A DNA stretch of 64,000 nucleotides from Leptolyngbyaceae cyanobacterium (GTDB lineage Bacteria > Cyanobacteriota > Cyanobacteriia > Phormidesmidales > Phormidesmidaceae): the NCBI GenBank assembly GCA_965263355.1, contig CBDHHL010000032.1, positions 1,408,001 to 1,472,000 of the forward strand, read 5' to 3'. This document shows positions 22,403 through 39,601 of this stretch, one piece after another. The notes under the pieces were generated by a model. It did not search any database. It was not told the origin of the DNA and worked only from the letters and a program-made list of their open reading frames with translations. A program made the position numbers and the translations under genes. The stretch's first letter is position 1. Each line of letters opens with the position of its first letter.

Positions 22403-23143
22403 TTACTCCTGATCCTGGAGCAGTACAACAGATTGCCAGGCAGCTTGCAAATGCTGATTATTGGGATAAGCTTTCATCTCACTCATTAGCACCCCCAACA
22501 TGTCATACCAGTATCCATTTTCCGCTAGCCACTGAGCCTGCTCTAATGGTTTTTTCTGCTGAAGTAGTCGGGTCAGCAATGGTGTAGCAGCCACCCGTTG
22601 AACCCAGCCCACCAAAACAGGATTATCAGGATCTGCCTGTTCGCCACAAACTACCACAACATGCCAACGGTAGTTACGACCCACGGCTAGAGGGGGTGCT
22701 TCATCTGATAATGACAGCCTAATAAACCCAGTTTGATCAGCTACCCCAAAGTCTTCCTCTGCATAATATAGTCCCGCTTCATCCATCACCGTGAGAATTA
22801 ATCGTTGAACCGATGAGTTTTCTGGCACCTGTACAACTAAGGTAGGACGATCTGCTAAGGTAAGTCCAAAGTTATTCTCAGGCATGAGGACTTCTACTGA
22901 TTGTTCTTCTATATTACAAAGGCCACCATTGCGTGAACCGACACCAGATGTATCTTTAGGGGCATCGTCTCCAGGTGGATCAAATGTTTCATGAAAAACA
23001 ATTTTGTCTATGGTATCCACCCTTTTAGGAGATTGTTGGGCGTTTACAGATCGAGTAATAGCAGCCGTAACTATCACAGAAAGTACAGCAGTCATTCCCC
23101 AGTAAGCAATTGGGGAAGAATTAAAAAATGTCCCGAGGTGCAT
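22403..23143 (-). CDS. DUF928 domain-containing secreted protein
   Basis: Signal peptide (VNA-QQ), FDPPGDDAPKDTSGVGSR..C, GLTLADRPT, LAVGRNYRW, GWVQRV, AENGYWYD. Confidence 0.9.
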   Translation of the reverse strand: MHLGTFFNSSPIAYWGMTAVLSVIVTAAITRSVNAQQSPKRVDTIDKIVFHETFDPPGDDAPKDTSGVGSRNGGLCNIEEQSVEVLMPENNFGLTLADRPTLVVQVPENSSVQRLILTVMDEAGLYYAEEDFGVADQTGFIRLSLSDEAPPLAVGRNYRWHVVVVCGEQADPDNPVLVGWVQRVAATPLLTRLLQQKKPLEQAQWLAENGYWYDMLGVLMSEMKAYPNNQHLQAAWQSVVLLQDQE

Positions 23144-23512
23144 CTACTTAGAAGTTTGGTAAAGTACTCAACTTGATCGATTTGCTGTGACAATCTCTAC
23201 TCAAACTTACAAAGGGGGTTAATAGCTTCAGTAAAGTTTTCAGCAAAATTACCCATAAAAATCAAAAACATCGCTGACTCTTTTTTATAACTCTTAGGTC
23301 ATTAGCTATGTTGCTTACACAGCAATACATCTAAGAAACAATAGCAATCTCTTTCTTCGATCTCCAAAAGAGCAAGGCATTGCGTCCTCAAAAAGTCATT
23401 GTTATTTCGTACAAATTATCCACTACGATAAGTTAGTTGTTACTTTGTACAAAAGTTGAATCCACGATTCTCATTTTGTACAGTATTGTGACTAGAGGAA
23501 CCACATACTCAT

Positions 23513-26128
23513 TTACAACCAATTCCCAATCAAAACAAAGGGAGCCCAATAGTAAGGGTGCCTATAGTCATCACTACGCAACAAAGACAGCTGTGCTTGT
23601 TGCAGCGACCCAGCCCGAGAGCGCCCCACCTGACTAAGCTGTTGATAAAACTGATGCATCAGTTCTGCGGTAGAAAAGTCTTCCACCGACCACAGTGAGG
23701 CCACAGTACTCCTTGCCCCAGATCGTACTGCTAAACCAGCCATTCCCAATGCCGCTCTGTCATCCCCCTTAGCCGTCTGACAGGCACTTAAAATCAGCAT
23801 CTCAACGGGTGACTTTAGCTCTTGCTGCTGCAATAGATTCTCCAGTTCTTTTAGTTGTAGACGATTGTTCCAGGTCAAAATAAACGTCTCATCAGCCTTT
23901 GAACTAAACTGCCCATGGGTAGCCAAATGCACGATAGAAACAGGACGTTCAGTCACCTCTTTTGCCAGGTTATCCTTGGTGAAATTTTGATTGAGCAAAA
24001 TTTGTGTCGATGCTTGGGCTTTAATTTGCCGCATTTCAACATCCACCGCTGGCAACGCATTAAACCCTTGATGAGCAACCGACATTCCCCCGGCTAACAC
24101 CTGCAAGCCCTGGTTAGGCACCCCTGGCGACTCAAATAGCTGTAAACCAGGCGTCAGAGCTAAACTGTAGCGTTCGATCAGAAATTGCTTGCCATCATGT
24201 AAAACCGCCATCGGTAAGTTGCGCAGGGAGCCATCCAGCACAAATACCAGTCGCTGGATGCCAGCTTCTGTCAAAGCAGACTCTGCCGGTCTTAGTAACC
24301 AATCGTAGAGTTGTTGGGCCGGGGGTAAGACCCGAGTTGCGGGAAAGGCTGGGTTTAAGGCCTGTCGTAGGCTCTGGAATGTTTTTTGTCGGGTCTGCGC
24401 AGATAGCGTACGGCCATAATGCTGTAGAGTTCCGTCAGGTAAGGCCAGAATCACCTCTAATCGATCGTCTAGCAAAATGGGATATAAGACAGCCGCTTGG
24501 GGATCAATCTCATCAATGGGACGCACAGTATAGGTCAGACAAGCCTCTCGAAAATAGTTTTCTAGCTCGGCTAGCTGTAGGCCTTCGATCACCTGACGAG
24601 AATGGGCTAGTCGCTGTTGTTGTTGCTCGGGTGGTAGGTCATCTACAGTCTGTAACAATAGCTGCACTAATTCGCGATAGACCGGTTCGACTTGTTTTTG
24701 AAACGAAAACTGGATGTCTGGATTCGATGCTACCAAATCTTGATCTAACGATTCTAGTAGAGTAACCGCTTGATCATAGGCATCTATCGCTAGCTCAGGT
24801 TGTTTCTGTGCTTTGAGAATTCGTCCCCGTTGCCACTGCCAAATAGCAGTAATTTCGTCAGCCTGTACCTGCTTTGAGCGCTGAATTGCTTGTTCTGTTA
24901 GGGAGAGTGCCTCAGACCATTGTTGTGTTTGCTCATAAAGCTTGCCGAGCTGCCCAAGGGCATAGGATTCGGCATGAGGATCGTTAAGGGTTTGAGCTTG
25001 GTGGATGGATTGGGCGAGGAGGTGGGCGAGGGAGGGGAGGGAGAGAGGGGGAGAGGGGGAGGAAGAATTGGATAGTAGGGTTTCTGCAAAATTGACCTGG
25101 GCATAGATGCCCCAACGGCTGGGGGGTAGGGTTTCTAGTTGAGACTTGATGCCGTTGGCTAGGGCCAGGACAGTGGTCTCCTGGGACTGATCGAGCAAAA
25201 GTCGCAACTGATTAAGGGCGGTTTCTAGCCAGAGGCGGGATTGGTGTGGTGTGGTGTCGAGGACCTGCTGATAAAAGGAGAAAGCGGTTTTAAGATTGCC
25301 TTGGGCTTGGGTGGTGTTGCCAAGTTGGAAACGGGCGTTTGCGATCGCACCCCCATCATTCAGTTCCTGAGCAACGGTCAAGCTATCAGTCAATACAGTC
25401 TGAGACTCTTCCAGATCTCCAGTGGTTCTCAGAATAATGCCTATTGACTGCAGACCCTGAGCTTTAAGCAATGAAACTGGCTGGTTGGCTAACGTCTGAC
25501 GCAGATCGGTGATTAATCTACTGGCGCGGGCATAGTACCCCAGGGAGCGTAAGGCCTGTATCTGATTCGTTTGGGTCAACATCACTCCGGCGGGATCATG
25601 TCCTTGGCGATAGTTTTGTTCTGCCGTCTGCCATGTGGCCAACGCTTGAGCAGGGTGTCCCTGGTGAAACTCTAAAGTACCCTGGGCATTGAGTACCTGG
25701 GCTAGGGCAATGGGCTGGTTAGATACATGGGCATGGGCCTGTGCGATCTCATCTTCTGCCGCTGACCACTGTCCAAGATCTTGATAGGCCAGGGTGAGAT
25801 AGGTATAGGCGAGAGCCTGATCCGCTGATGTGGTCGCTGTTGCTATGGCCTGTTGCCAAAGGTTAATGGCCTGATGAAGTTGTCCGGCATGATAATACTG
25901 TTGCCCTTGCTCCAGTAGCTCTGCTGGACTGTTGTTTCCACTGTCATGACGGGTATTGACAGAGAGTTCACTGGTAGCTAATTCAGACGCTATAAGGTGA
26001 ATGGGGGGGCTGTAAATGCCGTGGGATTGCGACGATAGCTGTTCAACGGCTTCTGTTTTGACAGTACCGATGAGCACAAAACAACAGCTTAAAAATAGCA
26101 GCAGCCCGTAGCGAAGCCGTCGGTTCAT
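23513..26128 (-). CDS. Secreted TPR + CHAT (caspase-like, HetF-associated) protease
   Basis: Signal peptide MNRRLRYGLLLFLSCC..., TPR repeats, catalytic VHLATHGQF and LILSACQTA, terminal HPYYWAPFVLIGNW. ATG 26128 has an AAGGAGG RBS and an ATGA overlap with the upstream stop. Confidence 0.93.
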   Translation of the reverse strand: MNRRLRYGLLLFLSCCFVLIGTVKTEAVEQLSSQSHGIYSPPIHLIASELATSELSVNTRHDSGNNSPAELLEQGQQYYHAGQLHQAINLWQQAIATATTSADQALAYTYLTLAYQDLGQWSAAEDEIAQAHAHVSNQPIALAQVLNAQGTLEFHQGHPAQALATWQTAEQNYRQGHDPAGVMLTQTNQIQALRSLGYYARASRLITDLRQTLANQPVSLLKAQGLQSIGIILRTTGDLEESQTVLTDSLTVAQELNDGGAIANARFQLGNTTQAQGNLKTAFSFYQQVLDTTPHQSRLWLETALNQLRLLLDQSQETTVLALANGIKSQLETLPPSRWGIYAQVNFAETLLSNSSSPSPPLSLPSLAHLLAQSIHQAQTLNDPHAESYALGQLGKLYEQTQQWSEALSLTEQAIQRSKQVQADEITAIWQWQRGRILKAQKQPELAIDAYDQAVTLLESLDQDLVASNPDIQFSFQKQVEPVYRELVQLLLQTVDDLPPEQQQQRLAHSRQVIEGLQLAELENYFREACLTYTVRPIDEIDPQAAVLYPILLDDRLEVILALPDGTLQHYGRTLSAQTRQKTFQSLRQALNPAFPATRVLPPAQQLYDWLLRPAESALTEAGIQRLVFVLDGSLRNLPMAVLHDGKQFLIERYSLALTPGLQLFESPGVPNQGLQVLAGGMSVAHQGFNALPAVDVEMRQIKAQASTQILLNQNFTKDNLAKEVTERPVSIVHLATHGQFSSKADETFILTWNNRLQLKELENLLQQQELKSPVEMLILSACQTAKGDDRAALGMAGLAVRSGARSTVASLWSVEDFSTAELMHQFYQQLSQVGRSRAGSLQQAQLSLLRSDDYRHPYYWAPFVLIGNWL

Positions 26129-29100
26129 CCTGCCCTCCTTGCTGTTACACATTGGGTGTGTGGGAGTTTAGTCATTTGAGAAGCCTGTGCCACCAACTGC
26201 ACACGTCCTTGGTCATCAATCAACCAGTCCTGTGCTTCTACAACTTCTTCAGGGGATAACGCCTGTTCAATTACTTCACCAGTGACTCCATCAGGGCGTC
26301 GCCAGTCTTGTAGTACGATTTGTCCCTGCCAGAGCTGACGCGGGTCCGTAGGCAGGCCTCCTCTCCCCGTGGTTACTAGAGAATTGTTACTGCCAGCGGC
26401 ACAGCGAGCGGTGATTTGGTCGGCAGATGCCAACTGGTCTGGTAGCTCTAACTCTGAGGGTTCAAGTTCTGGATTGAACTGTTCAATAATCACTTCACCA
26501 TCAAGACCAAACTGTGAGCTGGCGGTAATGTCATTAAAAGGCGTGAGATTTTCTCGAAAGTCAATACCCAAAAGTCCTTGAGTAGCAATGGTAATATTGC
26601 CACCGTTACCTTCAAACGCATTGGCTGTAATGTCGCTATTCTCGCCAGGAACCGCAATAATAAAGCCATCGCCAAACGTAATATTGCCCCCATTGCCCCC
26701 AGCTCCAGCCTGGCCAGCTGTGGTGGAGATTATGCTACCGTTCCGTAAGAACAGTAGATCATCGATTTGTAGCGCCACGTTGCCCCCCTCTCCCGATGCG
26801 CTAGTCGCAGTGATATTACCCTGATCCAAAGACAACAACCTGGCTCCGATGCCAATATTGCCAGCGTCACCCTGACCTTCGCCACTGACGGTCACAGTAG
26901 CCCCATCTCGAATTCGGAACTCTCCTGTGGTGACTTGAATATCTCCTCCGGTCCCCGTAGCGGTTTCAAAGGAAGAAGCCAGCAGACCACTGGCAATACC
27001 CGTATCGGTGGGATCAATCAAATCGATTGACTCAGTGGCAACCACGGTCAAATCTCCAGCTTTTCCCGTACCAAATGTTGTAGTAATTGCCTGGGCTCCC
27101 CCGCTAGCCCGCATCCGTTGAGTTTGCAGTTCAATATCACCAGAGGTTGCTGCTGTAAACGACCCAGTGGCGAGTAAGGAGCCCTCTAGCTGTAGATCGT
27201 TAGTGGCCGTGATGTTAATATCACCACCTGCCCCGTTATTTAAGGTGGTGGTGGCTACCAACGCCCCATTACGGGCAATAAATTCGGATGTCCTAATTTC
27301 CACATTGCCAGCAGAGCCCTCACCGGCAGCTACGGTCAAAATACCCTGGGTAAAGTTATCCACGCCTAAGGTACCATCAAGGGCCGGGTCAATAATCTGT
27401 TCTTTTAGGACAGTAAAACCATTGCCCACAATCTCAACAGATTCACTGGCATCAATCCGAATATTGCCTCCATTTTCCACAGTCGTTGTGGATGCATTAA
27501 TCTGACCATTATTCAGCTTTAGGCTATCGGTAACAATGTCAATGTCTGCCCCTGCGCCATTACCTAAGGTAGCTGTGGTAATTTCGCCCCCATCCTTTAC
27601 TATTAGCTGCTGGGTAGTAATATTTACCGGTCCAGAATCACCGCTTGCCAGGGAGTTAGACGAAATTCTACTGGCTGTGTCTCCAGCGGCATTAATGCCA
27701 ACAACCTCGATTCGATCCCTTGCTTGCACCGTGAGAATTCCTCCATCGCCTGCTCCAAACGTATTAGAGGCCAGTAGGCTACCATCCTGAATCGATAGTG
27801 CTTCAGCGACAAGGGACATGTCACCAGCAGCCCCTGGCGAAATCGATGTAGTAATCACGCGAGCCCCCCCTGTCAGGGTGACCGTTTCCGCTTGAATCTC
27901 TAAATCACCCGCATCTCCACCTAAAAAATCAGTGCTCGTAAAGATTCCGCTGGTGCCTTGTAGATTAATATCTTCAGCAACGATAGATAGATTGCCACCT
28001 TCCCCCAGCACTGATGAGGTACTAATCCCAGCGCCATTGCGCAAGTTTAACTGCTTAGTGTTGAGGATAATGGCACCTGCTTTTCCAAATCCAAACCCGC
28101 CAGCAAAAATGGAACTGCCATTGCGGGCTAGCTCGATAATTTCTGCAGCGGACCCCGTTGGTGAAAGGTTTGATGGCCCTGGCAAAGAGCCAATCAGATC
28201 GATGGAGTCAGTCACATTGACAATCACATCCCCCCCGTCCCCCGTCAGAGATGTGGCCGACGAGAGTCCATAGGCCTCAACGGTCACGGGTAAATTAAAC
28301 CCAGGGGTACGAATAACTTGTAAGGATCGGGCATTGAGCACTAAGTCCCCTGTATCTGCTGTGCCAAAGTCAGTGCCAGCAAAAATGCCTGTATTACGCA
28401 TAACGATATCCTCGTCAGCATTGATAAAGACACTGCCACCGACGGCATCTTGAAACGGTCCTAAGAAAAGCAGGATAGATTCATCTCGACTCAGGGTACC
28501 GATGGAGGTCTCGTTTAGATCCATCGATTGGGCAGAAATGCGAATATCGCCGCCCACACCATTGCCAGCCATGCGATTAATGATGCGGTAGTTGTCAGCG
28601 GCGAGGGCACCGCCACTGGTGAGGGTAATCTGACCAGACTGCAACCCGTTGGCGCTAATGTCACCAAAGCGAGAAATGGGTTGGGGCGATCGCAAATCTA
28701 AATCCCCCCCAGCCGTAATGGTAATGTCTCCCGCCGTACCTGAAAAATCGGCGATAGTTCCAGTTGTAATGGAGCTGTCGGTCGCTATTTGGCCATTGAT
28801 GGCAATGTTTTCAGCAGCCGTGATGGTAATATTACCTGATTGATGATCCCCGTCGGATATCAAGTTATCGGTGACAGTAATGGAGCCTGCTAAGCTTGTA
28901 ACATCAATATTGCCACCATTGTCTCTTGTACTGTGGCTATCCAGCAGCCCAACGGTGATATCGCCCAAGGCAGAGAGGATAATATCACCGCTGTCACCAT
29001 TGCTATTCGTCGTAATGACGCTACCATCAGCGGTATTAATTTGATTTCCAGACAGCTCTACCTGACCACCAGGAGCAAGTAACGACCCCAGATTTCGAAC

Positions 29101-29820
29101 ATCGCCCCCCAGCAAGGTCAAATTCTGTTGTGGATCAACAGCTAAGATACCGCGATTCTCTAATAGGCTATTTCTGGTACTTGCACCATACTGAATCCCT
29201 GGTGCCACATTCAAACTCAACAGCGGTGATGGCACATCAGGCTGCACAGTACTAAATTCATACCCATCAATCCACAGGCTGTCTACAGTAGTTGCCGTAA
29301 ATGAGCCAGCAATATCTAACTGGGCCGCCTCACCAAACACAATGCCGTTAGGATTTAGCAAAAACAAGTTGGCTGGACCGTTAACCCCCAGCGTGCCATC
29401 AATAGCCGACGGTTGATTTCCTGTGATGCGAGTCAGAATATTGGTAATGCCCGCTGGGTTAGTAAAGTAAACCTGTTGCCCTTGGTCAATATTAAAGTCA
29501 GAAAAACTGTGAAATAGACCTGTACCACGGACAGCACCGCCCTCCAAACGTACTCCATCGGGAGTGCTGATTACCGTTGAACCTTCATTCCCAAGGGTAG
29601 TATCCGGAATCACCTGAGCCAGGGCATTTTGGAACGTAACCAGGGGAGCAGCTAGCAAGAAACCTGCCACAGCCCCTCTCAAGGCCGTCCAACTAAAATG
29701 CAAGCTAATCCTAAATCTGAATGCAGCCAATCCGACTAAAAATGGACAAAGTTGTAGGGGCAATCCCTTGTAGTTGCCCTGGGATATTGGGGGCAGGCAA
29801 CCAGGATTTTGTGTAAGCAT
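26125..29820 (-). CDS. Filamentous haemagglutinin N-terminal domain protein (TpsA-like exoprotein)
   Basis: AQVIPDTTLG, LFHSFSDFNI, NLFLLNPNGIVFG, many GxGGxI beta-helix repeats, cyanobacterial C-terminal TGRGGLP..P / EAQDW motif. Confidence 0.93.
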   Translation of the reverse strand: MLTQNPGCLPPISQGNYKGLPLQLCPFLVGLAAFRFRISLHFSWTALRGAVAGFLLAAPLVTFQNALAQVIPDTTLGNEGSTVISTPDGVRLEGGAVRGTGLFHSFSDFNIDQGQQVYFTNPAGITNILTRITGNQPSAIDGTLGVNGPANLFLLNPNGIVFGEAAQLDIAGSFTATTVDSLWIDGYEFSTVQPDVPSPLLSLNVAPGIQYGASTRNSLLENRGILAVDPQQNLTLLGGDVRNLGSLLAPGGQVELSGNQINTADGSVITTNSNGDSGDIILSALGDITVGLLDSHSTRDNGGNIDVTSLAGSITVTDNLISDGDHQSGNITITAAENIAINGQIATDSSITTGTIADFSGTAGDITITAGGDLDLRSPQPISRFGDISANGLQSGQITLTSGGALAADNYRIINRMAGNGVGGDIRISAQSMDLNETSIGTLSRDESILLFLGPFQDAVGGSVFINADEDIVMRNTGIFAGTDFGTADTGDLVLNARSLQVIRTPGFNLPVTVEAYGLSSATSLTGDGGDVIVNVTDSIDLIGSLPGPSNLSPTGSAAEIIELARNGSSIFAGGFGFGKAGAIILNTKQLNLRNGAGISTSSVLGEGGNLSIVAEDINLQGTSGIFTSTDFLGGDAGDLEIQAETVTLTGGARVITTSISPGAAGDMSLVAEALSIQDGSLLASNTFGAGDGGILTVQARDRIEVVGINAAGDTASRISSNSLASGDSGPVNITTQQLIVKDGGEITTATLGNGAGADIDIVTDSLKLNNGQINASTTTVENGGNIRIDASESVEIVGNGFTVLKEQIIDPALDGTLGVDNFTQGILTVAAGEGSAGNVEIRTSEFIARNGALVATTTLNNGAGGDINITATNDLQLEGSLLATGSFTAATSGDIELQTQRMRASGGAQAITTTFGTGKAGDLTVVATESIDLIDPTDTGIASGLLASSFETATGTGGDIQVTTGEFRIRDGATVTVSGEGQGDAGNIGIGARLLSLDQGNITATSASGEGGNVALQIDDLLFLRNGSIISTTAGQAGAGGNGGNITFGDGFIIAVPGENSDITANAFEGNGGNITIATQGLLGIDFRENLTPFNDITASSQFGLDGEVIIEQFNPELEPSELELPDQLASADQITARCAAGSNNSLVTTGRGGLPTDPRQLWQGQIVLQDWRRPDGVTGEVIEQALSPEEVVEAQDWLIDDQGRVQLVAQASQMTKLPHTQCVTARRAG
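29708..29814 (+). repeat. ~107-bp MITE copy lying in frame within the 5' end of the FHA gene
   Basis: ATCCTAAATCT...CCGACTAAAAATGGAC...GTAGGGGCAATCCCTTGTAGTTGCCCT...CAGGATTTTGTGT aligns end to end with 55271-55376. Confidence 0.75.
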
Positions 29821-30063
29821 AGGCAATCTAAAGCACCCATTCGCGTGGGGTTAACCACACTGTGAATCTACGCTTTGATATTTCAGTGCTAAATGATAAT
29901 TTCATCCCAACTTTATACGTCTTTGCAATATACCTCACTTTTCTTACCTTTTGCACATTAGGTAAGTTTGGTGCATTGAAGTAATAGAAGTGAGGTGATT
30001 GATAGGTTCCTTCTCTTTGACACCTTTGCAACTAGTGTTTTCAGCTAAAGTTCGGCTATGGCT

Positions 30064-30107
30064 ACTTGATCATGGGCATTGATGTCGCCTGGCTACCATG
30101 ATCAAGT
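30064..30107. other. 12-bp inverted repeat upstream of the tail-collar gene
   Basis: ACTTGATCATGG / CCATGATCAAGT with 20-nt spacer. Confidence 0.55.
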
Positions 30108-30188
30108 GGTTTGCTTGTCAGTTTGAGTCAATGCTATGAGCTGACTGGCCTATTTGTTCTTTGTTTGTTACCTGGAGAGAGACAACCG

Positions 30189-30551
30189 ATGCAACCGATG
30201 GAACCGATGCTTGGGCAGATCACTATATTTGCGGGCAACTTTGCCCCTAGAGGCTGGATGTTTTGTGATGGTAGAGAAATGCTAATCAACGATAATGACG
30301 CTCTGTATAGCATACTAGGAACTACCTATGGAGGCGATGGACGACGTACCTTTGCCCTACCCGATCTTCGAGGTCGTGTGCCTGTTCATGAGGATTCTGA
30401 TCATAGGCAAGGAAGCCAGGGTAACCTCACAAACGAGCTCACGCAGTATGAACGTGGTAAAGGAATAGAAACAGGAGCCGCACCTTATTTAGCCGTTAAC
30501 TACATCATTGCAGTTCAGGGTATATTTCCCTCTCGCAACAACTACTACTAA
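30189..30551 (+). CDS. Phage tail-collar domain protein (microcystin-dependent protein MdpB-like)
   Basis: GQITIFAGNFAPRGWMFCDG...LYSILGTTYGGDG..TFALPDLRGR, C-terminal PYLAVNYIIAVQGIFPSR; GGAGA RBS before ATG 30189. Confidence 0.9.
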   Translation: MQPMEPMLGQITIFAGNFAPRGWMFCDGREMLINDNDALYSILGTTYGGDGRRTFALPDLRGRVPVHEDSDHRQGSQGNLTNELTQYERGKGIETGAAPYLAVNYIIAVQGIFPSRNNYY

Positions 30552-30589
30552 GCTCTGGTGACCAATGGGATGATGGGCGATCTCACTAA

Positions 30590-30630
30590 TCTCTATCGGC
30601 GTTCCTCATGTAAGGGAACGCCGATAGAGA
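30590..30630 (+). terminator. Strong hairpin after the tail-collar gene (terminator or RNA stabiliser)
   Basis: 16-bp perfect stem TCTCTATCGGCGTTCC / GGAACGCCGATAGAGA, 9-nt loop, no clear U-tract. Confidence 0.55.
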
Positions 30631-30683
30631 ATCGCCTGGTTCGAGACTAATCCTCGAACCTTCCTAGCCCTTTACAACTTCCC

Positions 30684-30727
30684 AAAAAGATTTTTCTTAG
30701 ATCTGTGCATTTAAGAAAAATCTTTTT
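30684..30727. promoter_or_regulatory. AT-rich 16-bp inverted repeat upstream of the LodA-like gene
   Basis: AAAAAGATTTTTCTTA-N12-TAAGAAAAATCTTTTT. Confidence 0.45.
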
Positions 30728-30974
30728 CCTTAAGAAACTGAGGTGATGGCTATCGCTGAGTGTTCTCAGATGACGGATTCGGGAATATCACAAAATATAA
30801 CTTATTTTGTTAAGTGTTAAATACTAAAGACGTTAGATAGATATCAAACGAGAGAATGTAGGATAACAAAGGTATAAAGACCAAAATCGTTACCTTTTGC
30901 GACATATGTCTGCTTTATACGTTGTTTAGATAGCCAGTGTATTTCCAGCTGTCATACTACTGTTTGAGGCCCTA

Positions 30975-33014
30975 TTGATGAGCACAGATAACGCTGCCAA
31001 AAATATTGCTTACGTTGCCATTCATCCCGGTATTGGTATTGCCCGAGTTGGCAATTGTCGAGAGGAGAATGGATACTACATCGGTCCTGAAGTGACTAAT
31101 CCTAGATACGATGATCCTGGCCATGCCAAGGAAAAGCATGGAAAACATCCTGGACATTATCAGCCTGGCCAGATGAAGGATGATACAGGGGCGCTCAAAC
31201 GTCAGGCCGCTCGTTTTCGCATCTATGGCTATGACAAAGATGGTAATGCGATTTGTGAGATCACAGCAGATGATCCGAAGACTACCATTGAATGGACGGT
31301 GGAAATTGCCAATAAAAAAGCTGGATGGTATGAATTCGTTGAAGCCCTAGACCTCCCCGGTGGTCCTAAGGCCGATCGCCGAAATGCTAATATTCCTAAA
31401 AAAGATCGCCACAAATTAGAAATTCGACCCGAGCCCCAATCTATCTCAGGTAAACATCAAACATCGTCACCATTTGACGATGGTGAATTTATGGGCAAAA
31501 AGGTCTATCTGGGAGAACTTCGTACCGACGGCAAAGGACGATTATTGTTTTTAGGGGGATATGGCGAGTCTCACTCAGCCTATGCTGATAATCCACCTGC
31601 CAGCTTTGGTAACAACAATGGCTGGTGTGATGATATGTCTGATGGTTCAGTGTTGGCCAAGGTCACCATTGATGGCAAGACCTTTGAGGCTGATCCGGCC
31701 TGGGTGGTAACGGCACCGCCCAACTATGGAACTACCCTGATCGGTGTGAAAACCATGTGTGATGTGATGACCGATGTGTTTATCAATCCCACTGCGCGAA
31801 GTTATTGGTGGTCTTTTCCTAAGGAGATTTCGTTTACAAAACATATTCTGCCCATTTTTCAACAGTTTAGTGATGCCCAATGGGTGAACTATGGCTTCTC
31901 AGTGCAATTTGGCTACAATGGGCCATTTGACTTTACCAATAAGGCCTTTCTCAAGAAGCTGTCTCAAATCCCTTGTAAAACTGAGTCTAGCGGTTCACAA
32001 ACAGATGTTTACCAGGAATTTCGACGACAAATTTACAATCAGTTCCGTCTGCCCACACAAACAGAACCCAAATTTCAACCGGATCCCAACTCTCCGACGG
32101 TGCAGCTATGGCCCTGGATGTATGGGGATACGGTACAGCTGGGAGGAGCACCCCAGGATGCCAATCAGTATCTGTGTTTGACCAATACGCAACTGATGAT
32201 TTTAGAAAAATGGGTCGAGGGTGATTTTATCGATGATTTGAAATTTCATCATGGCGATGGCACCCATGTTGATATCGCCAAACTCTATCACCATACCCAT
32301 ACCCACATTGAAAAGTATCCCATTGAGGAACAACCGTTAGAACTGGATCGGGCGGCCATGCATTTCTGTCTTGGCGGTGCATTTCACCCAGGTTGTGAGA
32401 TGACCTGGCCCATGCGCCATGCCACCATGTATAGGGCTCCTTTCCGGATCCGTCCCCGCACAGACAAAAATCCCGAACCGGACTATGGCGACCATTTAAG
32501 CCACAAAGAGGTGGTGGATGATAACGGACCATTGTATTTTAATGCGCCTGGGGATATTACTCGCTGGATGGCGGTACCCTGGCAGACGGATACCTCTAGC
32601 TGTCGGTCTGGTTATATTCCCAAGTATGATCCATTTTTGCCCACGTTCTGGCCTGCACGGGTGCCGAACCATGTGCTGACTAAAAAGGATTATGCCATTG
32701 TGATGGATCCTAAAAAGAAGAAAGAAGAGCGTTTAGAGGCCTTTAATCGTCGAGCAGTATGGTTACGGGGGTTACCAGGGGAATATTTGAGCCAGATTCG
32801 TGAGATGGTGACAGAATTTGGCAAGCTAGGAGTTGTGGAGAAGAGAGAAGGCCCTGAGGATCCAGAGTTTCCGGATGTGATCTATGTGGAGTCTGAAGTG
32901 GGCTATGAAGAACCGGAATCTCCCGATAAAAACTTGCTATGTGAGTATGTGCCATCGGCAAATGAGGCGCGCTACTGGCGTGAGCGTCAGGAACGGTTAG
33001 GCGGCGATCGCTAG
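30975..33014 (+). CDS. LodA/GoxA-family CTQ-dependent amino-acid oxidase
   Basis: IHPGIGIARVGN, LKRQAARFRIYGY, GWCDDMSDG, GGAFHPGCEMTW, GDITRWMAVPWQTDTSSC (Asp-x3-Cys), FWPARVP. Confidence 0.93.
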   Translation: MMSTDNAAKNIAYVAIHPGIGIARVGNCREENGYYIGPEVTNPRYDDPGHAKEKHGKHPGHYQPGQMKDDTGALKRQAARFRIYGYDKDGNAICEITADDPKTTIEWTVEIANKKAGWYEFVEALDLPGGPKADRRNANIPKKDRHKLEIRPEPQSISGKHQTSSPFDDGEFMGKKVYLGELRTDGKGRLLFLGGYGESHSAYADNPPASFGNNNGWCDDMSDGSVLAKVTIDGKTFEADPAWVVTAPPNYGTTLIGVKTMCDVMTDVFINPTARSYWWSFPKEISFTKHILPIFQQFSDAQWVNYGFSVQFGYNGPFDFTNKAFLKKLSQIPCKTESSGSQTDVYQEFRRQIYNQFRLPTQTEPKFQPDPNSPTVQLWPWMYGDTVQLGGAPQDANQYLCLTNTQLMILEKWVEGDFIDDLKFHHGDGTHVDIAKLYHHTHTHIEKYPIEEQPLELDRAAMHFCLGGAFHPGCEMTWPMRHATMYRAPFRIRPRTDKNPEPDYGDHLSHKEVVDDNGPLYFNAPGDITRWMAVPWQTDTSSCRSGYIPKYDPFLPTFWPARVPNHVLTKKDYAIVMDPKKKKEERLEAFNRRAVWLRGLPGEYLSQIREMVTEFGKLGVVEKREGPEDPEFPDVIYVESEVGYEEPESPDKNLLCEYVPSANEARYWRERQERLGGDR

Positions 33015-33095
33015 ACCCACCCCGGAGCCCCTCCCAGGAGGGGAAAAGTTGTCCCGAGTGCCAGTGAGGGTTGTGGTAGATAGTTTTGCTAATCT

Positions 33096-34211
33096 ATGCC
33101 TACTGATTCAACAATGTTGACAGCTGACGTTGCCATTGCAGGCTCCGGCCCAGCTGGTTCCATCGCTGCCCTTGTTTTAGCCCAGAAAGGTCATTCAGTT
33201 TGTTTGATCGACGACGTGCAACCCGGTGCTCCAAAAGTGGGCGAGTCTCTCCCAGGGGCGGCTCGCCCATTGTTACGAGATTTAGGTCTGCTCACACTTG
33301 TGGAGGCGGGGGGCCATACCCCTTGTTATGGCAATCTCTCGGTATGGGGTTCCGATCAGGTAATCGAAACGGATTTTATCCGCGATCCGAATGGGTTGGG
33401 CTGGCATTTGGATCGGCCTAAATTTGATGAATCTCTTCGACAGGCTGCTTTAGCTGCAGGGGCACAGTACCATCAGTCGCGGGTTAGCTCAGTGCTGTGG
33501 TCTGGTGAGAATTGGTTGGTGACGTTGTCGTCTGGGCAAGAGATAACAATGCACTGGGTGTTGGATGCGACGGGGCGGCGGGCGGCACTGGCACGTCAGC
33601 TGGGGGCACGGCGGCAGCGGGATGATGATTTGGTGGCGGTGGTGACCTGGGTGCCGTCTTCTGAAGAGGATCGAGATACGCGGACGCTAATTGAGGCGGT
33701 GCCGGATGGATGGTGGTATACAGCGCGGTTACCGGGAGTTAAGCCTCAGCGGGTGGTGGTGTTTCATACGGTGCCGCAGGTGGCGGGTAGGCTACGGCGT
33801 GAGCCTAAGGTCTGGCTGGATTATTTGTCTCAGGCGCATCAGGTAAGCCGCGTGTTGGGGCGTATTTTGTCGGCGGATGAGCTGGCGGCGATGGTGGCGG
33901 CTCCTAAGCCGTTTTTGTTGACGGAGGCTTGCGGGGCGCGGTTGGATCGGTTTTGGGGGCCGGGCTGGTTGGCGGTGGGAGATGCGGCGCTTTCGTTTGA
34001 TCCGTTATCGTCCCAGGGGATTTTTAATGGGTTGTATACGGGGATGATGGCGGGGCGGACGGTGGATGCGGTTTTGTCGGGGCAGGCGGATGTACTACAA
34101 GGATATGCGACTCAGTTGGAAAGTATTCGGGCAGCGTATTTAAGACACCAGCAAATGTTTTATCAGGCAGAAGAGAGATGGTATAAGAATACGTTTTGGG
34201 CTCAGCGCTGA
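33096..34211 (+). CDS. LodB/GoxB-like FAD-dependent oxidoreductase (CTQ maturation flavoprotein)
   Basis: GSGPAG, KVGESLP, GWHLDR, DATGR, EAVPDGWWY, VGDAALSFDPLSSQGI; directly downstream of the LodA-like gene. Confidence 0.88.
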   Translation: MPTDSTMLTADVAIAGSGPAGSIAALVLAQKGHSVCLIDDVQPGAPKVGESLPGAARPLLRDLGLLTLVEAGGHTPCYGNLSVWGSDQVIETDFIRDPNGLGWHLDRPKFDESLRQAALAAGAQYHQSRVSSVLWSGENWLVTLSSGQEITMHWVLDATGRRAALARQLGARRQRDDDLVAVVTWVPSSEEDRDTRTLIEAVPDGWWYTARLPGVKPQRVVVFHTVPQVAGRLRREPKVWLDYLSQAHQVSRVLGRILSADELAAMVAAPKPFLLTEACGARLDRFWGPGWLAVGDAALSFDPLSSQGIFNGLYTGMMAGRTVDAVLSGQADVLQGYATQLESIRAAYLRHQQMFYQAEERWYKNTFWAQR

Positions 34212-34264
34212 ATTGCTAAATCTACACTCGTCCTACAGAGCATCCACAACGAAGAAAATACCAC

Positions 34265-34442
34265 GTAGGGTGGGCAAATGCCTATGGATATCCGTTATCC
34301 CCTTACCAATATCTATGCTTCCCACCATCACCGATGCTGCCCATTGAGTAAAAATCTTGAAAGAGGTGGGCAAAATGTAACGGTTGACAATGGCGCAGGA
34401 TATCTAGCCTACCATTCTACGTGTTGACTATGCTCACTCTAC
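34265..34442. repeat. Degenerate GTAGGGTGGGCA-type REP-like repeats
   Basis: GTAGGGTGGGCA at 34265 with decayed inverted partners (TTCCCACCATCAC, TGCTCACTCTAC); a reverse-complement TGCCCACCCTAC occurs at 48091. Confidence 0.5.
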
Positions 34443-34556
34443 TCTGACTCGTACTCAACAATTTATGACCATCCTATTAAGATAAAACAGTACTGCATCA
34501 ACCTTATTAGGGGCCATTATCACCAAGAAAAGCAGTCCACACTGGGGCTCATAAAA

Positions 34557-34612
34557 ATTTTCAACACTTGGTCTGACTTGCTTTGCTATGCTGCTTAGTG
34601 GATAAAGTCGAG
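34557..34612 (+). mobile_element. Solo right end of the IS701-family element
   Basis: 56 bp matching the reverse complement of 21086-21141, including the transposase stop codon and TIR TGGATAAAGTCGAG. Confidence 0.9.
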
Positions 34613-34773
34613 GTCAGGTGAGAAAATGGCGAAAAGTAGGATCTTCCTTAAACTGTATCCAGCTTATAAACAACGCAGTTATAAATGAGCTAGAACAATA
34701 ATATAGACAAAAAGTATCAGTAAATTGGAAGCTTAAGCAGTCTGAATTTCGCGCCATCTAACCATGTACTAAA

Positions 34774-35013
34774 ATGTTACTTTTTGAGCGGGGTCACTTT
34801 ATCTATGGCGGAACAACAGTTGCACTGTCGATGTTGATAACGGCAACTGCATGCCAGCCAGAAAATTTGTCAACACACTACATCGGCGATATTTTGCAGC
34901 CAATTGTGTTACCCAATAGTTTTGAACCCCCCGGCGATAAGTCCCCTAATCGGACTTCAGGCCTTGGTTCTCGTAGTTACCGGCAGCAGCCCTTTCAGAC
35001 AAGAATGGGGTAG
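34774..35013 (+). CDS. Small putative lipoprotein carrying the DUF928 N-terminal FxPPGD...TSGxGSR motif
   Basis: Hydrophobic segment ending ITATA-C; FEPPGDKSPNRTSGLGSR is 12/18 identical to the motif in the DUF928 protein. Confidence 0.65.
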   Translation: MLLFERGHFIYGGTTVALSMLITATACQPENLSTHYIGDILQPIVLPNSFEPPGDKSPNRTSGLGSRSYRQQPFQTRMG

Positions 35014-35037: not shown

Positions 35038-37788
35038 CTACGTCAAATGGGTAGACGGGCACTGATTGGTGGGTTTGCCTAATAAGCTGCTAATTAATTG
35101 CTGATTTTCTTCACTCTCAGTTTGCTGGAGATATTCTAGGGCAATTTGGCCGACGGCAGGTTTTTCCTGGGAAATCATAACCAGTTGTTTTACAGTTTGT
35201 TGTAGTTGAATTCGCTTTAGTCGCTGGTTTGCCATAATAACAAATGCCAGGATAGACAGCCCCCAGGAGAGGACCGCCGGCAGCAAGGGTAACCATAAGC
35301 CTGCTAAAAAACTGGCATAACAGAGAAGAAATAGGACAATAAAACCCAGCGTGGCAATTGTTAAAACACGTCTCGGGGATTTGAGCCACCAAACCATACT
35401 GGTGCCCATCAATGCCCACATCAGCCCCCACAATTGTTCCTGGGGCTCCGACCATGTGTTTAATAGCGGTCGTTCATCCAGGGCTGCGGCTAACAGCTGA
35501 CTGATAATATTGGCATGGACTGCGATGCCCGCCATTTCCTCCTGGGGAAGTCCAAACCAAAAGGTATTGTAGGGGGTACCCACCAGGTTTTGGACACTCT
35601 CGGCAATGGGACCAACCAGAACAATGCGATCGCGCATCGCCCCTGTGGGTACATTTCCCGTCAATACTTGCTGTAAAGAATAGGTTTGGAATTTACTTTG
35701 AGTACCCCAATAGTTAATCAAGATTTGATAGCCACCATCATCTGCCCGGACATAGCCGCCATGATTACTTCGGAAGGGATAAAGCGTGGCCTGTCCTAAC
35801 CGAACGATGTGGGAAGACTGAGGTAACTCATTTGGATGAATGCCATCCGCCTTCAAATAATCTAAAGTTAGCTTTAAGGCAAGACTATGACGAAGTTTTC
35901 CATCGGGTGTACGCAGAGAGAGCAGGGCTCGCCGTAGGTTACCATCAGAATCAAATACCTGGTCTGTAAATCCTACCTGGTCAAGGCTAGCCAGTTGGAC
36001 AGGAGGTGCCACCTGGGTGCCAACAACTTTTTCAATGCCTACTAGATTCGGCATTGTGGCAAATAGCTGGTTAAGCTGTTGTGTGCCTGGTTCAACAGGC
36101 AAATCACGATAAAAAATTAGACCAATTTGTCGGGGTTGCTGAGCCGCCAGCTGTCGTAGGACATCCGCAATCACTTGGTCAGGAATAGGATAGCGGCCTA
36201 TCCGTTGTAAATCTGTTTCATCAATGGTAACTAGGGTAATGCGAGGATCCATCGGCACAGTGCCATGGCGTAGTTGAAAAAAACCATCTAGCAACGTCCA
36301 TTCACTTCCCTGTAGCCAACCGGTCAGACACAGTAACCATACCAATAGAGCCGTTGCCCCGCCCACCAAGAAAACCCACCAGGGAGGAATACGTAACCGC
36401 TTAACCCGTTGTCGGCTGGTTAATTTTGCCTGGGCCAGTACCTGATTGGCTTCGCGGGTAACCGCCAGGGCAAATTGAATTTGTTCTCGCTGTTGTTGTT
36501 CTTCTTCTAACTGAGTTTCAATACGGTATTGTTCTTGTTGTTGGCTAATTCTCAAAAAACGATAATCTAAATCGCTCAGCTGTTTTTCATCAGCCCAGGC
36601 AATGGCTTCTTGTAAGGCCAACCCTTTAAGCAGACAAGTTGCGTCCGTTTGCTCGGTGGCAATCCAGTTATCAAAGGCGGCTGAATAAGGGCGCAGTAGG
36701 GATAACTGCCGCGTTACCCAACTATTGTTAAAGATATTTCGGTAAATTGGATTTTTAACTTGGAGATGTCCCTGACGATTGACCACTAGTCCTGAGAGAA
36801 GTAGCTCCGTTTGTTCCCGACTCCCGTCACAGGGAACGTCCTGGTTTGCTAAGATTTGCTGATAAAGCCCTAGTAAACGCCCCGTAAGGGTGGGTTGGTT
36901 GAGGATGCGATCGCGAATAGTCCTCAAATGTTCAGGCTCATCGCGAGTTTCCCAATTTTCAATCAATCGGGTTTGCACTACCCAGTTGATCCAGTTAGTC
37001 TGGGCTGCAGAGTCTGTCGGGGGAGGGGCTGCTTCGATCAGCTGCTGACATATTTTTTGAGTCAAAAACGGTTGACCGGCGGTCCATTCCAACACATCCG
37101 CCAGGTGAGAGGGCGACAGACCTAGCCCTTGCAATCCGGTGGCCAGGGGAGTGGCTTCTGCTAGCGAAAAGCCTTCCAATGTAATCGCTTGGCCAATATT
37201 AAAAGGCGTTCGTTGCCTATCCTGGAGTAAATCAGCTGGACTGGCTACCCCAAACATAGCAAACGTAATACGATGATAGTTGGGATCTATAGCACGTCTG
37301 TTATAGCAGTGGCGAATCGTCGCGAAAAAGTCATCAACCGCAAAGGGAAGTCCCAGAACATTGTCAATTTCGTCTAAAAAGATATAGAAATGGTCGTCTG
37401 GATATTGGGCCAGAAGTTGATCCCCAATAAAACGACTAAATTTCTGGGGTAATGAGACATCACGTTGGCACTGCCACCAGTGTTGAAAGTGCTCCTCATT
37501 AGGCAGCCGTAGATCATGCCATAGTTCAGCCAATAGCCCTTTGTACCACTGTATAGGCGTTACCCGTTTACTGCCGATGCTGGTTAAATCTACCATGGCA
37601 CAGCGATGGCCTGCCTGCTGCAGTCGGAACTTTGTCCGCACCATGAGGGAAGACTTGCCCATCTGCCGAGAATTGAGCACATAGCAAAATTCGCCTGCTG
37701 TGAGTGCTTTTAGCAAGCTCGTATCGGTCTGTCGCTCCACATAGGTGGGATCTGTTGCATGCAGAGTGCCACCAACTTGATATCGCAT
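35038..37788 (-). CDS. AAA_35 (STAND-like) ATPase fused to CHASE2 sensor domain
   Basis: YQVGGTL..YVERQ, LNSRQMGKSSL, IFLDEID; TM; CHASE2 motifs DPRITLVTIDETD, D.DG.LRR, GIAVHANIISQL; three C-terminal TM helices. Confidence 0.9.
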   Translation of the reverse strand: MRYQVGGTLHATDPTYVERQTDTSLLKALTAGEFCYVLNSRQMGKSSLMVRTKFRLQQAGHRCAMVDLTSIGSKRVTPIQWYKGLLAELWHDLRLPNEEHFQHWWQCQRDVSLPQKFSRFIGDQLLAQYPDDHFYIFLDEIDNVLGLPFAVDDFFATIRHCYNRRAIDPNYHRITFAMFGVASPADLLQDRQRTPFNIGQAITLEGFSLAEATPLATGLQGLGLSPSHLADVLEWTAGQPFLTQKICQQLIEAAPPPTDSAAQTNWINWVVQTRLIENWETRDEPEHLRTIRDRILNQPTLTGRLLGLYQQILANQDVPCDGSREQTELLLSGLVVNRQGHLQVKNPIYRNIFNNSWVTRQLSLLRPYSAAFDNWIATEQTDATCLLKGLALQEAIAWADEKQLSDLDYRFLRISQQQEQYRIETQLEEEQQQREQIQFALAVTREANQVLAQAKLTSRQRVKRLRIPPWWVFLVGGATALLVWLLCLTGWLQGSEWTLLDGFFQLRHGTVPMDPRITLVTIDETDLQRIGRYPIPDQVIADVLRQLAAQQPRQIGLIFYRDLPVEPGTQQLNQLFATMPNLVGIEKVVGTQVAPPVQLASLDQVGFTDQVFDSDGNLRRALLSLRTPDGKLRHSLALKLTLDYLKADGIHPNELPQSSHIVRLGQATLYPFRSNHGGYVRADDGGYQILINYWGTQSKFQTYSLQQVLTGNVPTGAMRDRIVLVGPIAESVQNLVGTPYNTFWFGLPQEEMAGIAVHANIISQLLAAALDERPLLNTWSEPQEQLWGLMWALMGTSMVWWLKSPRRVLTIATLGFIVLFLLCYASFLAGLWLPLLPAVLSWGLSILAFVIMANQRLKRIQLQQTVKQLVMISQEKPAVGQIALEYLQQTESEENQQLISSLLGKPTNQCPSTHLT

Positions 37789-38092: not shown

Positions 38093-38194
38093 TAGGGCTT
38101 TGCCCTTCTCGCAGAGTACTCTAGATCTCTGAGAAAATCGTCCCGCTTTATATTGGTACTCCTCCTAAATTTAATCCTTGTTATCTAATAACAT

Positions 38195-39601
38195 TTAGTG
38201 CACAAGGGCATCTAACTGATGGCTGAAATAAAGACGATAAAGTTCGCAACTTGGCTTAACTAGGGTACGCTCAAACCGAATTAGCCCCAAACTATCAAGC
38301 TTATAACTAGCAATGGCATCCAGGGCAATTCCTTCCTGACTGGTAACCACCTGATAATAGCTGGTTGCTATGGCTGGATCACTTTGGAGCATTGTCAGAT
38401 AGTTCTGAAGATGATGGCGATAAATCCCCTCGCTGGTAGCAGCCGTGGACACAATTTGCCCCAAAGACCTTTGGCCTTGCTGCAATGTATAAAATGCCAA
38501 CCCAGCTAAGTAAGGATGACCGTTGATCAGATGGTAAAAAGAAGGCAGCGATTGCCCGGAGGGTTCATGCAAAAACCTTTCCACACCATAATGATGGGCC
38601 AGGGTCGTCAACTGCTCCAGGGTAAAGGGGATTAATTTAATCGGCAAACCCACGTTAAAAGGAGATTGATTTAAATGCAATGGTACATAGAGATCGGTAG
38701 CGTGAACCAGGACCAGCCGTAGTTTTTGCCAAATAGCACTATCTTTAGAGCGTTCATGCCATACCCGTAGCATGGGCAAAAAGTCTTGGACAATAGATTC
38801 GTATTCAAATATGCGATTCAGTTCGTCAATCCCTAACACCAGGGGAGCCGCAATCTCTTTCAATAGATAGCGCTCAAAGTAAAGCTTACAATTGACTTTA
38901 CTACCCATTTCTACGTCCCACATGGCCTCTACCTTAGACGGTAGCCCCAGTTGCTGACTGGCATTCGCACATAACCAACGAAGAAATCGATCCAGGCGAT
39001 CAAAAATTTCTCGGTCAACTTCCTGAAAATTTAGGGTAACGGTATGGTATCCCTGACGACGACCATGGGCTAGCAAGCGATTGAGCAAGGAACTTTTGCC
39101 CATGCGACGAGGGCCTTTAATCCTCAATAGACAGCCAGGGTAGTCTAATTCGCTAAAAGCATTGGTTTCCAGCGGTAGGCGCTCAACATAGAGCGGCGAC
39201 TCTAACGATAAGGGGCCGGATGGAAATCGTCTTGCCGCCATGGCATAGTCTACCGTTGGCAGCAGGTGATAATTTATGGTGTCAGGCAGTGGCTCTAGGG
39301 TGGGGCTAATGCTGATGTGGCGTGATATCGGTGAGTTAGTGATCGAAGCTTGCTGCAAACGGTTGGGGGTCAACATCAACCGCAGACTTTTTTTGCTGAC
39401 GTTTTCGCCTAAGGCAACAGAGAGTTCTGACCACAGCTTAGAGCCGATCTGCTTGATATATTCCGTAGCATAGCTGGAGCTTTGGGCGATCTCAGCATAG
39501 CTACGCTGAGACCAAGACTCATTTAAGACCAAGCGCTCCAGCGTTCCCAACGGTCGTTGTAATAGCTGTTCTACTTCAAGTACAAGCGTATCTACATCCA
39601 T
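38195..39601 (-). CDS. N-terminal HTH + AAA_35 (STAND-like) ATPase
   Basis: W.QRSYAEIAQ...IKQIGSKLW..LS.ALGENVSKK HTH; SPLYVER, Walker A GPRRMGKSS, LGIDE, QSPFNVG. Start placed at ATG 39601; the ORF is open from 39685. Confidence 0.88.
   Translation of the reverse strand: MDVDTLVLEVEQLLQRPLGTLERLVLNESWSQRSYAEIAQSSSYATEYIKQIGSKLWSELSVALGENVSKKSLRLMLTPNRLQQASITNSPISRHISISPTLEPLPDTINYHLLPTVDYAMAARRFPSGPLSLESPLYVERLPLETNAFSELDYPGCLLRIKGPRRMGKSSLLNRLLAHGRRQGYHTVTLNFQEVDREIFDRLDRFLRWLCANASQQLGLPSKVEAMWDVEMGSKVNCKLYFERYLLKEIAAPLVLGIDELNRIFEYESIVQDFLPMLRVWHERSKDSAIWQKLRLVLVHATDLYVPLHLNQSPFNVGLPIKLIPFTLEQLTTLAHHYGVERFLHEPSGQSLPSFYHLINGHPYLAGLAFYTLQQGQRSLGQIVSTAATSEGIYRHHLQNYLTMLQSDPAIATSYYQVVTSQEGIALDAIASYKLDSLGLIRFERTLVKPSCELYRLYFSHQLDALVH

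Follow-up and report, generated by a model that had tools for sequence, protein, structure and literature searches.

A 64,000-nucleotide stretch of the genome of a Leptolyngbyaceae cyanobacterium (assembly GCA_965263355.1, contig CBDHHL010000032.1, positions 1,408,001 to 1,472,000; hereafter, the window) contains a putative signaling module built around a membrane receptor with a CHASE2 sensor domain, a partner ATPase, and a very small gene that shares a motif with a nearby DUF928 gene. All six genes of an original prediction made for this DNA, with the domains assigned to them there, were recovered by open reading frame (ORF) calling and Pfam searches. Among named organisms, Leptolyngbya sp. 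Heron Island J and L. cf. ectocarpi LEGE 11479 are the nearest, their receptors sharing 76-77% identity with that of the window.

The receptor (35038-37788, minus strand, 916 aa) comprises an AAA_35 domain (PF14516, residues 7-354), a transmembrane segment, a CHASE2 domain (PF05226, residues 479-795, E 4e-60), further transmembrane helices, and a short tail. Hydrophobic segments were identified at residues 467-483, 808-824 and 835-851, and a fourth, expected near residues 785-803, fell below the threshold. The partner (38195-39601, minus strand, 468 aa, ATG at 39601) combines an HTH domain with AAA_35 (PF14516, E 5e-131). The motif-only mini-gene (34774-35013, plus strand, 79 aa) has orthologs at the same position in six genomes, all convergent on the receptor gene. 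The remaining three genes are encoded on the minus strand: a DUF928 protein of 246 aa (22403-23143; PF06051, residues 67-239, E 1e-42); a TPR-CHAT protease of clan CD, 871 aa long (23513-26128, ATG at 26128; PF12770, E 4e-63, plus TPR); and an FHA-like two-partner-secretion (TPS) exoprotein with an uncertain start codon (26125-29826; PF05860, E 5e-47, and TIGR01901).

The motif-only mini-gene

The motif F.PP.{9}G.G[ST]R is present at just two places in the six-frame translation of the window, residues 54-71 of the DUF928 protein and residues 50-67 of the mini-protein (34921-34974), and in none of 200 codon-shuffled windows; the N-terminal motif said to be common to the small ORF and DUF928 is indeed shared. 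In the mini-protein, the motif is preceded by a signal-like N-terminus and followed by an unconserved 12-residue tail. Across the 18 motif codons of the seven clade 1 orthologs, there are 205 synonymous versus 39 non-synonymous differences in 21 pairs that are not independent of each other; outside the motif, the orthologs diverge freely. In clade 2 (loci L077 and L083), the motif shows 14 synonymous versus two non-synonymous differences. Judging from these substitution patterns, the 79-aa ORF is a selected mini-gene, with purifying selection acting on the motif.

None of the nine receptor-adjacent motif-only genes stops at the motif arginine, the tails being 3-14 residues long, and an R|S dipeptide is found at this arginine in seven of ten mini-proteins, including that of the window. 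A profile search covering 1.84 billion representatives yielded 104 matches; 31 of these are 110 aa or shorter, and 19 of the 31 lack the cysteine at the opening of the DUF928 domain. A profile of four mini-proteins matched in 20 of 150 genomes, 19 of which are among the 23 genomes that encode the receptor. In a quick tree of 40 receptors, motif-only genes are associated with three separate parts of the tree, which corresponds to at least four changes; in this analysis, L078, L084 and L086 were scored as lacking a ligand gene, unlike in the profile-search counts given below.

The small ORF had also been described as a lipoprotein, which did not hold up. The lipobox cysteine, Cys27, is missing from the aligned orthologs P0001, L001, L002, L065 and L066, and the cysteine of L064 lies in a different context, so a conserved lipoprotein was rejected with none of the six orthologs retaining this residue. 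The hydrophobic stretch of the mini-protein lies below the threshold of 1.6. A scan for sigma-70 promoters and terminators around the mini-gene gave results at chance level, with two found versus 2.0 expected. In one other genome (G312), a motif-only ORF (L174:1495-1737) is located far from the receptor L158, which has no ligand gene of its own; this ORF might provide the ligand in trans or be a stub.

The mini-gene could instead be a decaying DUF928 duplicate, with the ATPase-CHASE2 pair functionally unlinked to FHA, CHAT and DUF928. The mini-gene does occupy the place that DUF928 takes in sister clades, an insertion sequence (IS) has inserted just 5' of it, and L159, along with some short database proteins, resembles a truncation stub. 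We nevertheless consider this explanation very improbable, given the strong purifying constraint on the motif in clades 1 and 2, the lack of any DUF928 remnant 3' of the mini-gene stop in the 11 regions tested, and the distribution of ligand genes described in the next section.

Co-occurrence across receptor loci

AAA_35-CHASE2 receptors were identified in 23 of 150 genomes of the family to which the relatives belong and, considering the best two candidates per genome, in at least 13 of 401 genomes of the phylum. Scanning genome contigs with a degenerate pattern yielded just three loci. The 41 receptor loci, taken with flanks of at most 8.6 kb per side, include many that are cut by contig ends, one that is broken (L072) and one read-through fusion (L150); 23 loci of the far more common AAA_35-WD40 proteins served as controls. 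Ligand genes were counted by profile searches. A DUF928 or motif-only gene is present at 32 of the 41 receptor loci versus none of the 23 WD40 controls (Fisher p 4e-10, ignoring kinship), whereas the partner AAA_35 gene is found at 28 of 41 receptor loci versus 19 of 23 controls. Seen from the other side, CHASE2 is encoded within 1.5 kb in 42 of 58 loci centered on DUF928, and CHAT in 30. The co-occurrence on which the original prediction had staked its circuit was thus found for the ligand gene and the partner, but the AAA_35 pair also occurs outside this circuit.

Genome G001 has kept the partner, the receptor and the mini-gene, and has lost DUF928, CHAT and FHA. It contains no ortholog of the CHAT protease (the best match is 57% identical, versus 86% in G107), and its only match to the motif profile is the mini-gene itself, without a cognate DUF928. 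Elsewhere in G001, G008, G012 and G433, there are 11-16 CHAT matches, and such paralogs could act in trans.

The DUF928 protein

The DUF928 protein consists of a signal-like N-terminus, an unstructured tail that ends in the motif (22931-22984), an Ig-like beta-sandwich, and a helical C-terminal domain. Its AlphaFold model has an overall pLDDT of 88, with values of 54-79 and a coil conformation over the first 50 modeled residues. The motif arginine is invariant in all 29 aligned tails, and conservation drops directly after it. Some DUF928 proteins carry up to six tandem copies of the motif, and two related genomes contain 11 and 21 DUF928 matches with varied motifs. Sequence searches identified no credible match to DUF928 among solved structures. 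In Foldseek searches, the model matched mostly Ig-like and FN3-like folds, along with MtxA (4z29; TMq 0.42, E 2.9e-3). MtxA of magnetotactic bacteria (PDB 4Z29; PMC4439547) resembles DUF928 in that it combines a signal peptide with an Ig-like part and a TPR-like helical C-terminal part, and, in the portion of that paper covered here, its gene adjoins a CHASE2 cyclase gene. However, MtxA has a folded N-terminal region and no Gly/Pro/Arg tail, and the fold match is a weak one among many Ig-like folds.

Upstream of DUF928, a non-coding element on the same strand (23140-23260) is conserved across seven orthologs, with a mean pairwise identity of 81% versus 45% at the fourfold sites of DUF928, and contains an inverted 7-mer pair (23241 and 23181) about 53 nt apart. 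The element was not found in distant clades and appears to be a candidate promoter or operator specific to this clade. An RNA structure was rejected for this element, with compensatory change in just two of 23 predicted pairs. A gene for a PhoD-like phosphatase is located directly 5' of DUF928 in L070, L071 and L072, in L070 and L072 between CHAT and DUF928. In L150 (7814-11236, 1140 aa), an AAA_35-CHASE2 receptor reads into a DUF928 that retains the signal-like segment and the motif, which may be a genuine fusion with a tethered ligand or a product of misassembly.

The AAA_35 ATPase pair

The statement that AAA_35 is the only sizeable cytoplasmic module of the receptor was confirmed: no kinase, cyclase or GGDEF domain was detected in it by Pfam or NCBIfam, and beyond AAA_35 there is only a C-terminal tail of about 60 residues, partly conserved among 38 receptors. 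The Walker A and Walker B motifs are intact in all 39 receptors examined. Among 32 partners, Walker A was detected in 30 and Walker B, as DE or DN where the pattern matched, in 23. The N-terminus of the partner matches clusters of PF26355 (HTH_VMAP-M9) with a score of 0.93; L077 and L079 have an AAA_35-GGDEF protein as the partner, in place of the HTH protein.

The ATPase of the receptor is of the same type as that of AAA_35-WD40 proteins, and, from the domain architectures, the receptor is read as a cyanobacterial AAA_35-WD40 sensor with WD40 swapped for transmembrane segments and CHASE2. Since the partner AAA_35 is found beside both the CHASE2 and the WD40 types, the ATPase pair looks like a general chassis, and we read it as a two-gene switch that is general in cyanobacteria, with an exchangeable sensor and output. 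In L192, L194 and L195, four AAA_35-WD40 genes in tandem follow a single partner AAA_35 gene, giving many sensors per helper. Relay of the signal by this STAND pair is probable, with ATPase pairing and DNA binding deduced from the domains. In STAND NTPases, likewise, a P-loop NTPase acts as the switch, the sensor at the C-terminus varies, an effector domain is attached, and two-gene pairs occur, comparable to the AAA_35-WD40 plus HTH-AAA_35 pairs at 19 of the 23 control loci; they differ in that the sensor of the present receptor is the transmembrane CHASE2.

In multicellular bacteria, STAND NTPases, caspase-fold proteases and CHASE2 are all represented in predicted conflict systems, according to the part of PMC8195603 covered here, and a periplasmic TPR-CHAT governs a defense island in Myxococcus (the covered part of PMC11506125). 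The two AAA_35 proteins could then be an immune-type sensor/helper pair that guards the envelope, with DUF928, FHA or the peptide in the role of guard or decoy; an attack that removed or cleaved it would set off a response at the level of transcription or growth arrest. Caspase-nSTAND1 genes flank L077, L082 and L083. We find such a function quite unlikely. PADLOC (2023) defense models matched neither of the AAA_35 proteins nor DUF928 among the five proteins scanned, and only a generic TPR model matched CHAT; furthermore, the outputs are HTH or GGDEF rather than toxic effectors, and the motif is conserved, not diversifying, within clades. The flanking genes at L077, L082 and L083 encode a caspase of the Peptidase_C14 family joined to nSTAND1 and are located just 3' of clade 2 receptors.

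The CHAT protease and the FHA exoprotein

As initially proposed, FHA and CHAT are translationally coupled: the FHA stop codon overlaps the CHAT start codon as ATGA, preceded by AGGAGG. The catalytic motifs of CHAT also proved to be intact, with the dyad His738 (23915-23917) and Cys783 (23780-23782) invariant in all 32 aligned homologs. A hydrophobic segment is present at the N-terminus, and, from the sequence, the entire TPR-CHAT protein appears to be exported. Among solved structures, sequence searches with CHAT matched only TPR repeats. The C-terminal region of FHA contains Cys1142, a GR|GG site (Arg1155, 26362-26364) and Cys1226, and a G[RK]GG site is retained in ten of 12 complete FHA homologs. 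A single 1835-aa frame in L168 (11969-17476) matches TPS, TPR and CHAT, forming an FHA-protease fusion.

HetF, a cyanobacterial CHAT protease, cuts after arginine (R117|S118; PMC9457339, in the portion covered here), and such a preference for arginine fits the invariant motif arginine. By this analogy, CHAT may cut the motif, although we hold this to be somewhat doubtful. In its full form, a stricter special case of the reading favored here, the circuit of the original prediction would have CHAT cleave both DUF928 and the mini-protein behind the motif arginine; the freed diffusible peptide would then be the obligatory CHASE2 ligand, in the manner of a pheromone-like cell-cell signal. The invariance of the arginine in the 29 tails with the subsequent drop in conservation, the R|S dipeptide of most mini-proteins in light of the HetF cut, and the tandem motif copies, which resemble a polyprotein precursor, all agree with this circuit, as does the distribution of CHAT, which tracks full-length DUF928 (19 of 28 loci that contain it versus none of 13 that do not). 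However, the exported TPR-CHAT is present at only 19 of the 41 receptor loci and missing from 22, including all four peptide-only loci (paralogs in trans are possible); as noted above, no receptor-adjacent mini-gene stops at the arginine; and FHA offers an alternative arginine site. An obligatory CHAT that cuts at or near GxGSR is therefore not supported, and the full circuit seems unlikely.

The position of the GR|GG site between two C-terminal cysteines, together with the translational coupling of FHA and CHAT, points to adhesin release of the LapG/CdrA kind, for which there is the cysteine-hook idea. Under this explanation, the module would work inside-out, as with LapD, LapG and CdrA: CHAT would cut FHA at GR|GG and free it from the surface, the CHASE2-held DUF928 tail would keep CHAT in check by mimicking its substrate or acting as an adaptor, and that state would be set by the ATPase pair. 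Besides the coupling and the retention of G[RK]GG, a Pseudomonas precedent (PMC4694147, the covered part) speaks for this mechanism, and a Gly-rich tail that ends in arginine could fit an Arg-specific active site. Weighed against these points are the mini-genes under selection beside receptors that have no CHAT or FHA nearby (L001, L077 and L083), the HTH domain of the partner, which implies an outside-in output, and the presence of FHA within about 8.5 kb at just 11 of the 41 receptor loci, a count partly limited by the regions fetched. Overall, control of an adhesin is improbable, slightly more so than the full peptide circuit. In the portion of PMC4694147 covered, LapD/LapG with CdrA or LapA resemble the present genes in comprising an inner-membrane receptor, a periplasmic cysteine protease and a surface adhesin, but the protease is transglutaminase-like, the receptor is a c-di-GMP-binding EAL protein, signaling runs inside-out, and there is no peptide gene. 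The domains found here are CHAT and AAA_35-CHASE2, rather than a LapG-family protease and an EAL/GGDEF LapD, and the analogy is one of function only.

Proposed mechanism and predicted peptide-receptor contact

In the reading that we favor, the exported DUF928 tail (F.PP..D..P..T.G.GSR) would be a ligand or modulator of the adjacent CHASE2 domain, and the mini-gene would yield this tail by itself. Binding would be transmitted through the membrane helices and change the state of the cytoplasmic AAA_35 ATPase of the receptor, which would hetero-oligomerize with the AAA_35 of the partner; the output would be altered transcription through the partner HTH (GGDEF in some relatives), without a kinase. 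FHA and CHAT would form an optional upstream arm, in which an Arg-preferring CHAT probably acts on GR|GG of FHA, on the site following the motif arginine of DUF928, or on both, such that the cuts would determine the amount of free or tethered tail seen by the receptor. Taken as a whole, that is, with the tail or mini-peptide binding CHASE2 and the split STAND pair relaying to HTH, this reading comes close to an even chance, its binding, export, pairing, DNA-binding and cleavage steps all being deduced rather than observed.

The complex of the CHASE2 ectodomain with the peptide was modeled with our own alignments (56 rows for CHASE2 and 28 for the peptide) and scored 0.57 (individual runs, 0.02, 0.57 and 0.59), whereas the best control scored 0.00. 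The runs share at least 35% of the contacts, and the pLDDT of the partner is at least 37. In calibration, the mark was reached by 116 of 157 solved pairs and two of 215 mismatched ones, with scores of 0.60 or lower obtained for 18 of the 157 solved pairs and for both of these mismatches. No solved relative of CHASE2 was found by sequence or fold search, which makes it unlikely that the prediction reproduces an already known complex. With the model of the CHASE2 domain, Foldseek gave no match at E 0.001, and the best VIA-align match had a Z of 5.4, with a root-mean-square deviation of 3.7 over 127 aligned residues; this absence of a fold match should not be taken as a sign of a new fold or of a difference. 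Likewise, no solved structure was credibly matched to the receptor by sequence. The complex model shifts the odds of a peptide-CHASE2 contact just slightly, and the claim is carried by the genomic evidence. The binding that had been proposed for the peptide finds support in the selection on the motif, the gene retention in G001 and the weak pass of the model, and is undercut by the run at 0.02; on balance, binding of CHASE2 by the DUF928 tail or mini-peptide appears rather likely.

Several observations weigh against this reading. The score of 0.57, with one run at 0.02, lies in a band that is more often wrong than right unless the complex is likely beforehand. The loci are related to each other, and this kinship inflates all co-occurrence counts. 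At nine of the 41 receptor loci, there is no ligand gene nearby; several of these are contig-cut, but L158 and L163 are complete for about 8.5 kb per side. At 13 of the 41, the partner AAA_35 is missing. The L159 mini-gene, which represents the third part of the receptor tree, resembles a recent nonsense stub of DUF928 and may not function, and many of the 19 short Cys-less database proteins may be fragments. Export of the mini-protein is deduced from inspection of its signal-like N-terminus, and no operator was tied to the partner HTH.

A broader version of this reading, in which filamentous cyanobacteria run paralogous channels, would have exported caspase-fold proteases free Arg-ended peptides from DUF928 proteins and mini-genes, each variant being read by a cognate CHASE2 that signals, in the branch described here, through a two-part STAND ATPase to DNA, without a kinase or second messenger. 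We regard this extension as unlikely, on a par with the full circuit.

Relationship to known systems

As in the peptide pheromone and quorum systems ComCDE, Agr and RNPP, a small precursor gene with a conserved mature core is located beside the receptor gene. The other comparisons below, and those above, reflect the portions of the cited papers that were covered. Among cyanobacteria, HetF, which acts on PatU3 in Anabaena PCC 7120 (PMC9457339), is likewise a CHAT protease with a His/Cys dyad, but it contains a membrane segment along with TPRs in the periplasm, and the outcome of its cut is the destruction of a regulator, whereas here the whole TPR-CHAT appears to be exported. DdvA/DdvS of Myxococcus xanthus (PMC11506125) also ties a periplasmic TPR-CHAT to transcriptional control; in DdvA, however, CHAT forms one protein with an anti-sigma factor that crosses the membrane once, the output is an extracytoplasmic-function (ECF) sigma factor, and the covered text describes no CHASE2, STAND or peptide component.

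Dgc2 of Leptolyngbya boryana (PMC10581220) shares the extracellular CHASE2 domain and the membrane anchoring with the present receptor, as do CyaD1, CyaD2 and CyaK of Sinorhizobium meliloti (PMC13001267), which, with NsrA, respond to a protein signal. The outputs of those receptors are GGDEF or cyclase domains, in contrast to the N-terminal AAA_35 and separately encoded HTH partner found here, and the covered parts of the two papers describe no self-encoded peptide. In PMC10581220, the CHASE2 ligand is described as unknown. The protein signal in S. meliloti comes from the plant and reaches the CHASE2 cyclases via NsrA (PMC13001267).

The location of DUF928 beside CHASE2 and WD40 genes has been reported (PMC5587647), and conflict systems with STAND and caspase components have been described, in the parts covered without this pair joined to CHASE2 (PMC8195603, PMC7159879 and PMC10907252). 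Our literature searches found no description of the circuit, or of DUF928, CHAT and CHASE2 together, with subscription papers and the neighborhood tables of PMC8195603 and PMC7159879 outside their scope. We conclude that the module is real, conserved and, as far as these searches reach, unpublished, and that it is built from known families.

Because the selected mini-gene contains little beyond the 18-residue motif, the question of the CHASE2 ligand becomes one of a one-peptide binding assay. If the peptide binds, a large set of signaling channels would be expected in filamentous cyanobacteria, given the many DUF928 proteins with varied motifs. Through the receptor, a signal from across the membrane would feed into a so far undescribed two-gene STAND switch, whose WD40 form is very common in these organisms. 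Should the broader, multi-channel version be true, it would name a class of CHASE2 ligands and reveal a bacterial membrane peptide receptor wired to an NLR-like sensor/helper pair.

Gene order and neighboring genes

An IS701-like element with a DDE_5 transposase remnant (21081-22249, minus strand; PF13546) is bounded by terminal inverted repeats at 21081-21099 and 22231-22249, and an inverted 61-nt copy of its end (34557-34617, no strand assigned) is 97% complementary to 21081-21141. In L002 and L064-L067, the CHAT, DUF928 and mini-gene are on the same strand and head toward the 3' end of the receptor gene, with FHA first where the region reaches it. The flank to the right of the IS element (reversed) and the flank to the right of the 61-nt copy form a continuous alignment with the DUF928-mini-gene spacer of L067, and the block 21142-34556 is therefore flipped relative to close relatives. 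By these alignments, the IS701-like element was originally inserted between DUF928 and the mini-gene. The flip could be due to either recombination or a mis-join during assembly; the 61-nt repeat is a breakpoint in public contigs and was not bridged by four sequencing runs, favoring neither inversion nor mis-join. The flipped block between the IS701-like element and the 61-nt copy spans 13.4 kb.

Between FHA and the 61-nt copy, Pfam and NCBIfam identified a tail-collar-domain gene, a LodA/GoxA-like oxidase gene and a LodB/GoxB-like flavoprotein gene (30111-34211, plus strand), so that the original prediction, although correct for its six genes, was incomplete for this span. The LodA/GoxA-like quinoprotein oxidase scores below both curated cut-offs and is accompanied by the flavoprotein maturase. 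LodA and LodB were not seen in the fetched L002 and L064-L066 regions; with the flip undone, these genes and the collar gene lie upstream of FHA, and all three were rejected as members of the module. In L001, the mini-gene is also followed by two collar genes. A 19-bp inverted repeat with a 6-nt spacer, located 5' of the LodA-like gene (30684-30727), is a possible operator.

On the other side of the locus, genes for a Rieske protein, a phosphate-binding-like protein, a DAHL protein and a di-heme cytochrome c peroxidase (39760-46000, minus strand) are syntenic 5' of the HTH-AAA_35 gene in L001, L065 and L066. In L064, the upstream synteny is kept, and the Rieske gene is not at that place. A third, unrelated AAA ATPase gene (40434-41990) is inserted here in the window only.

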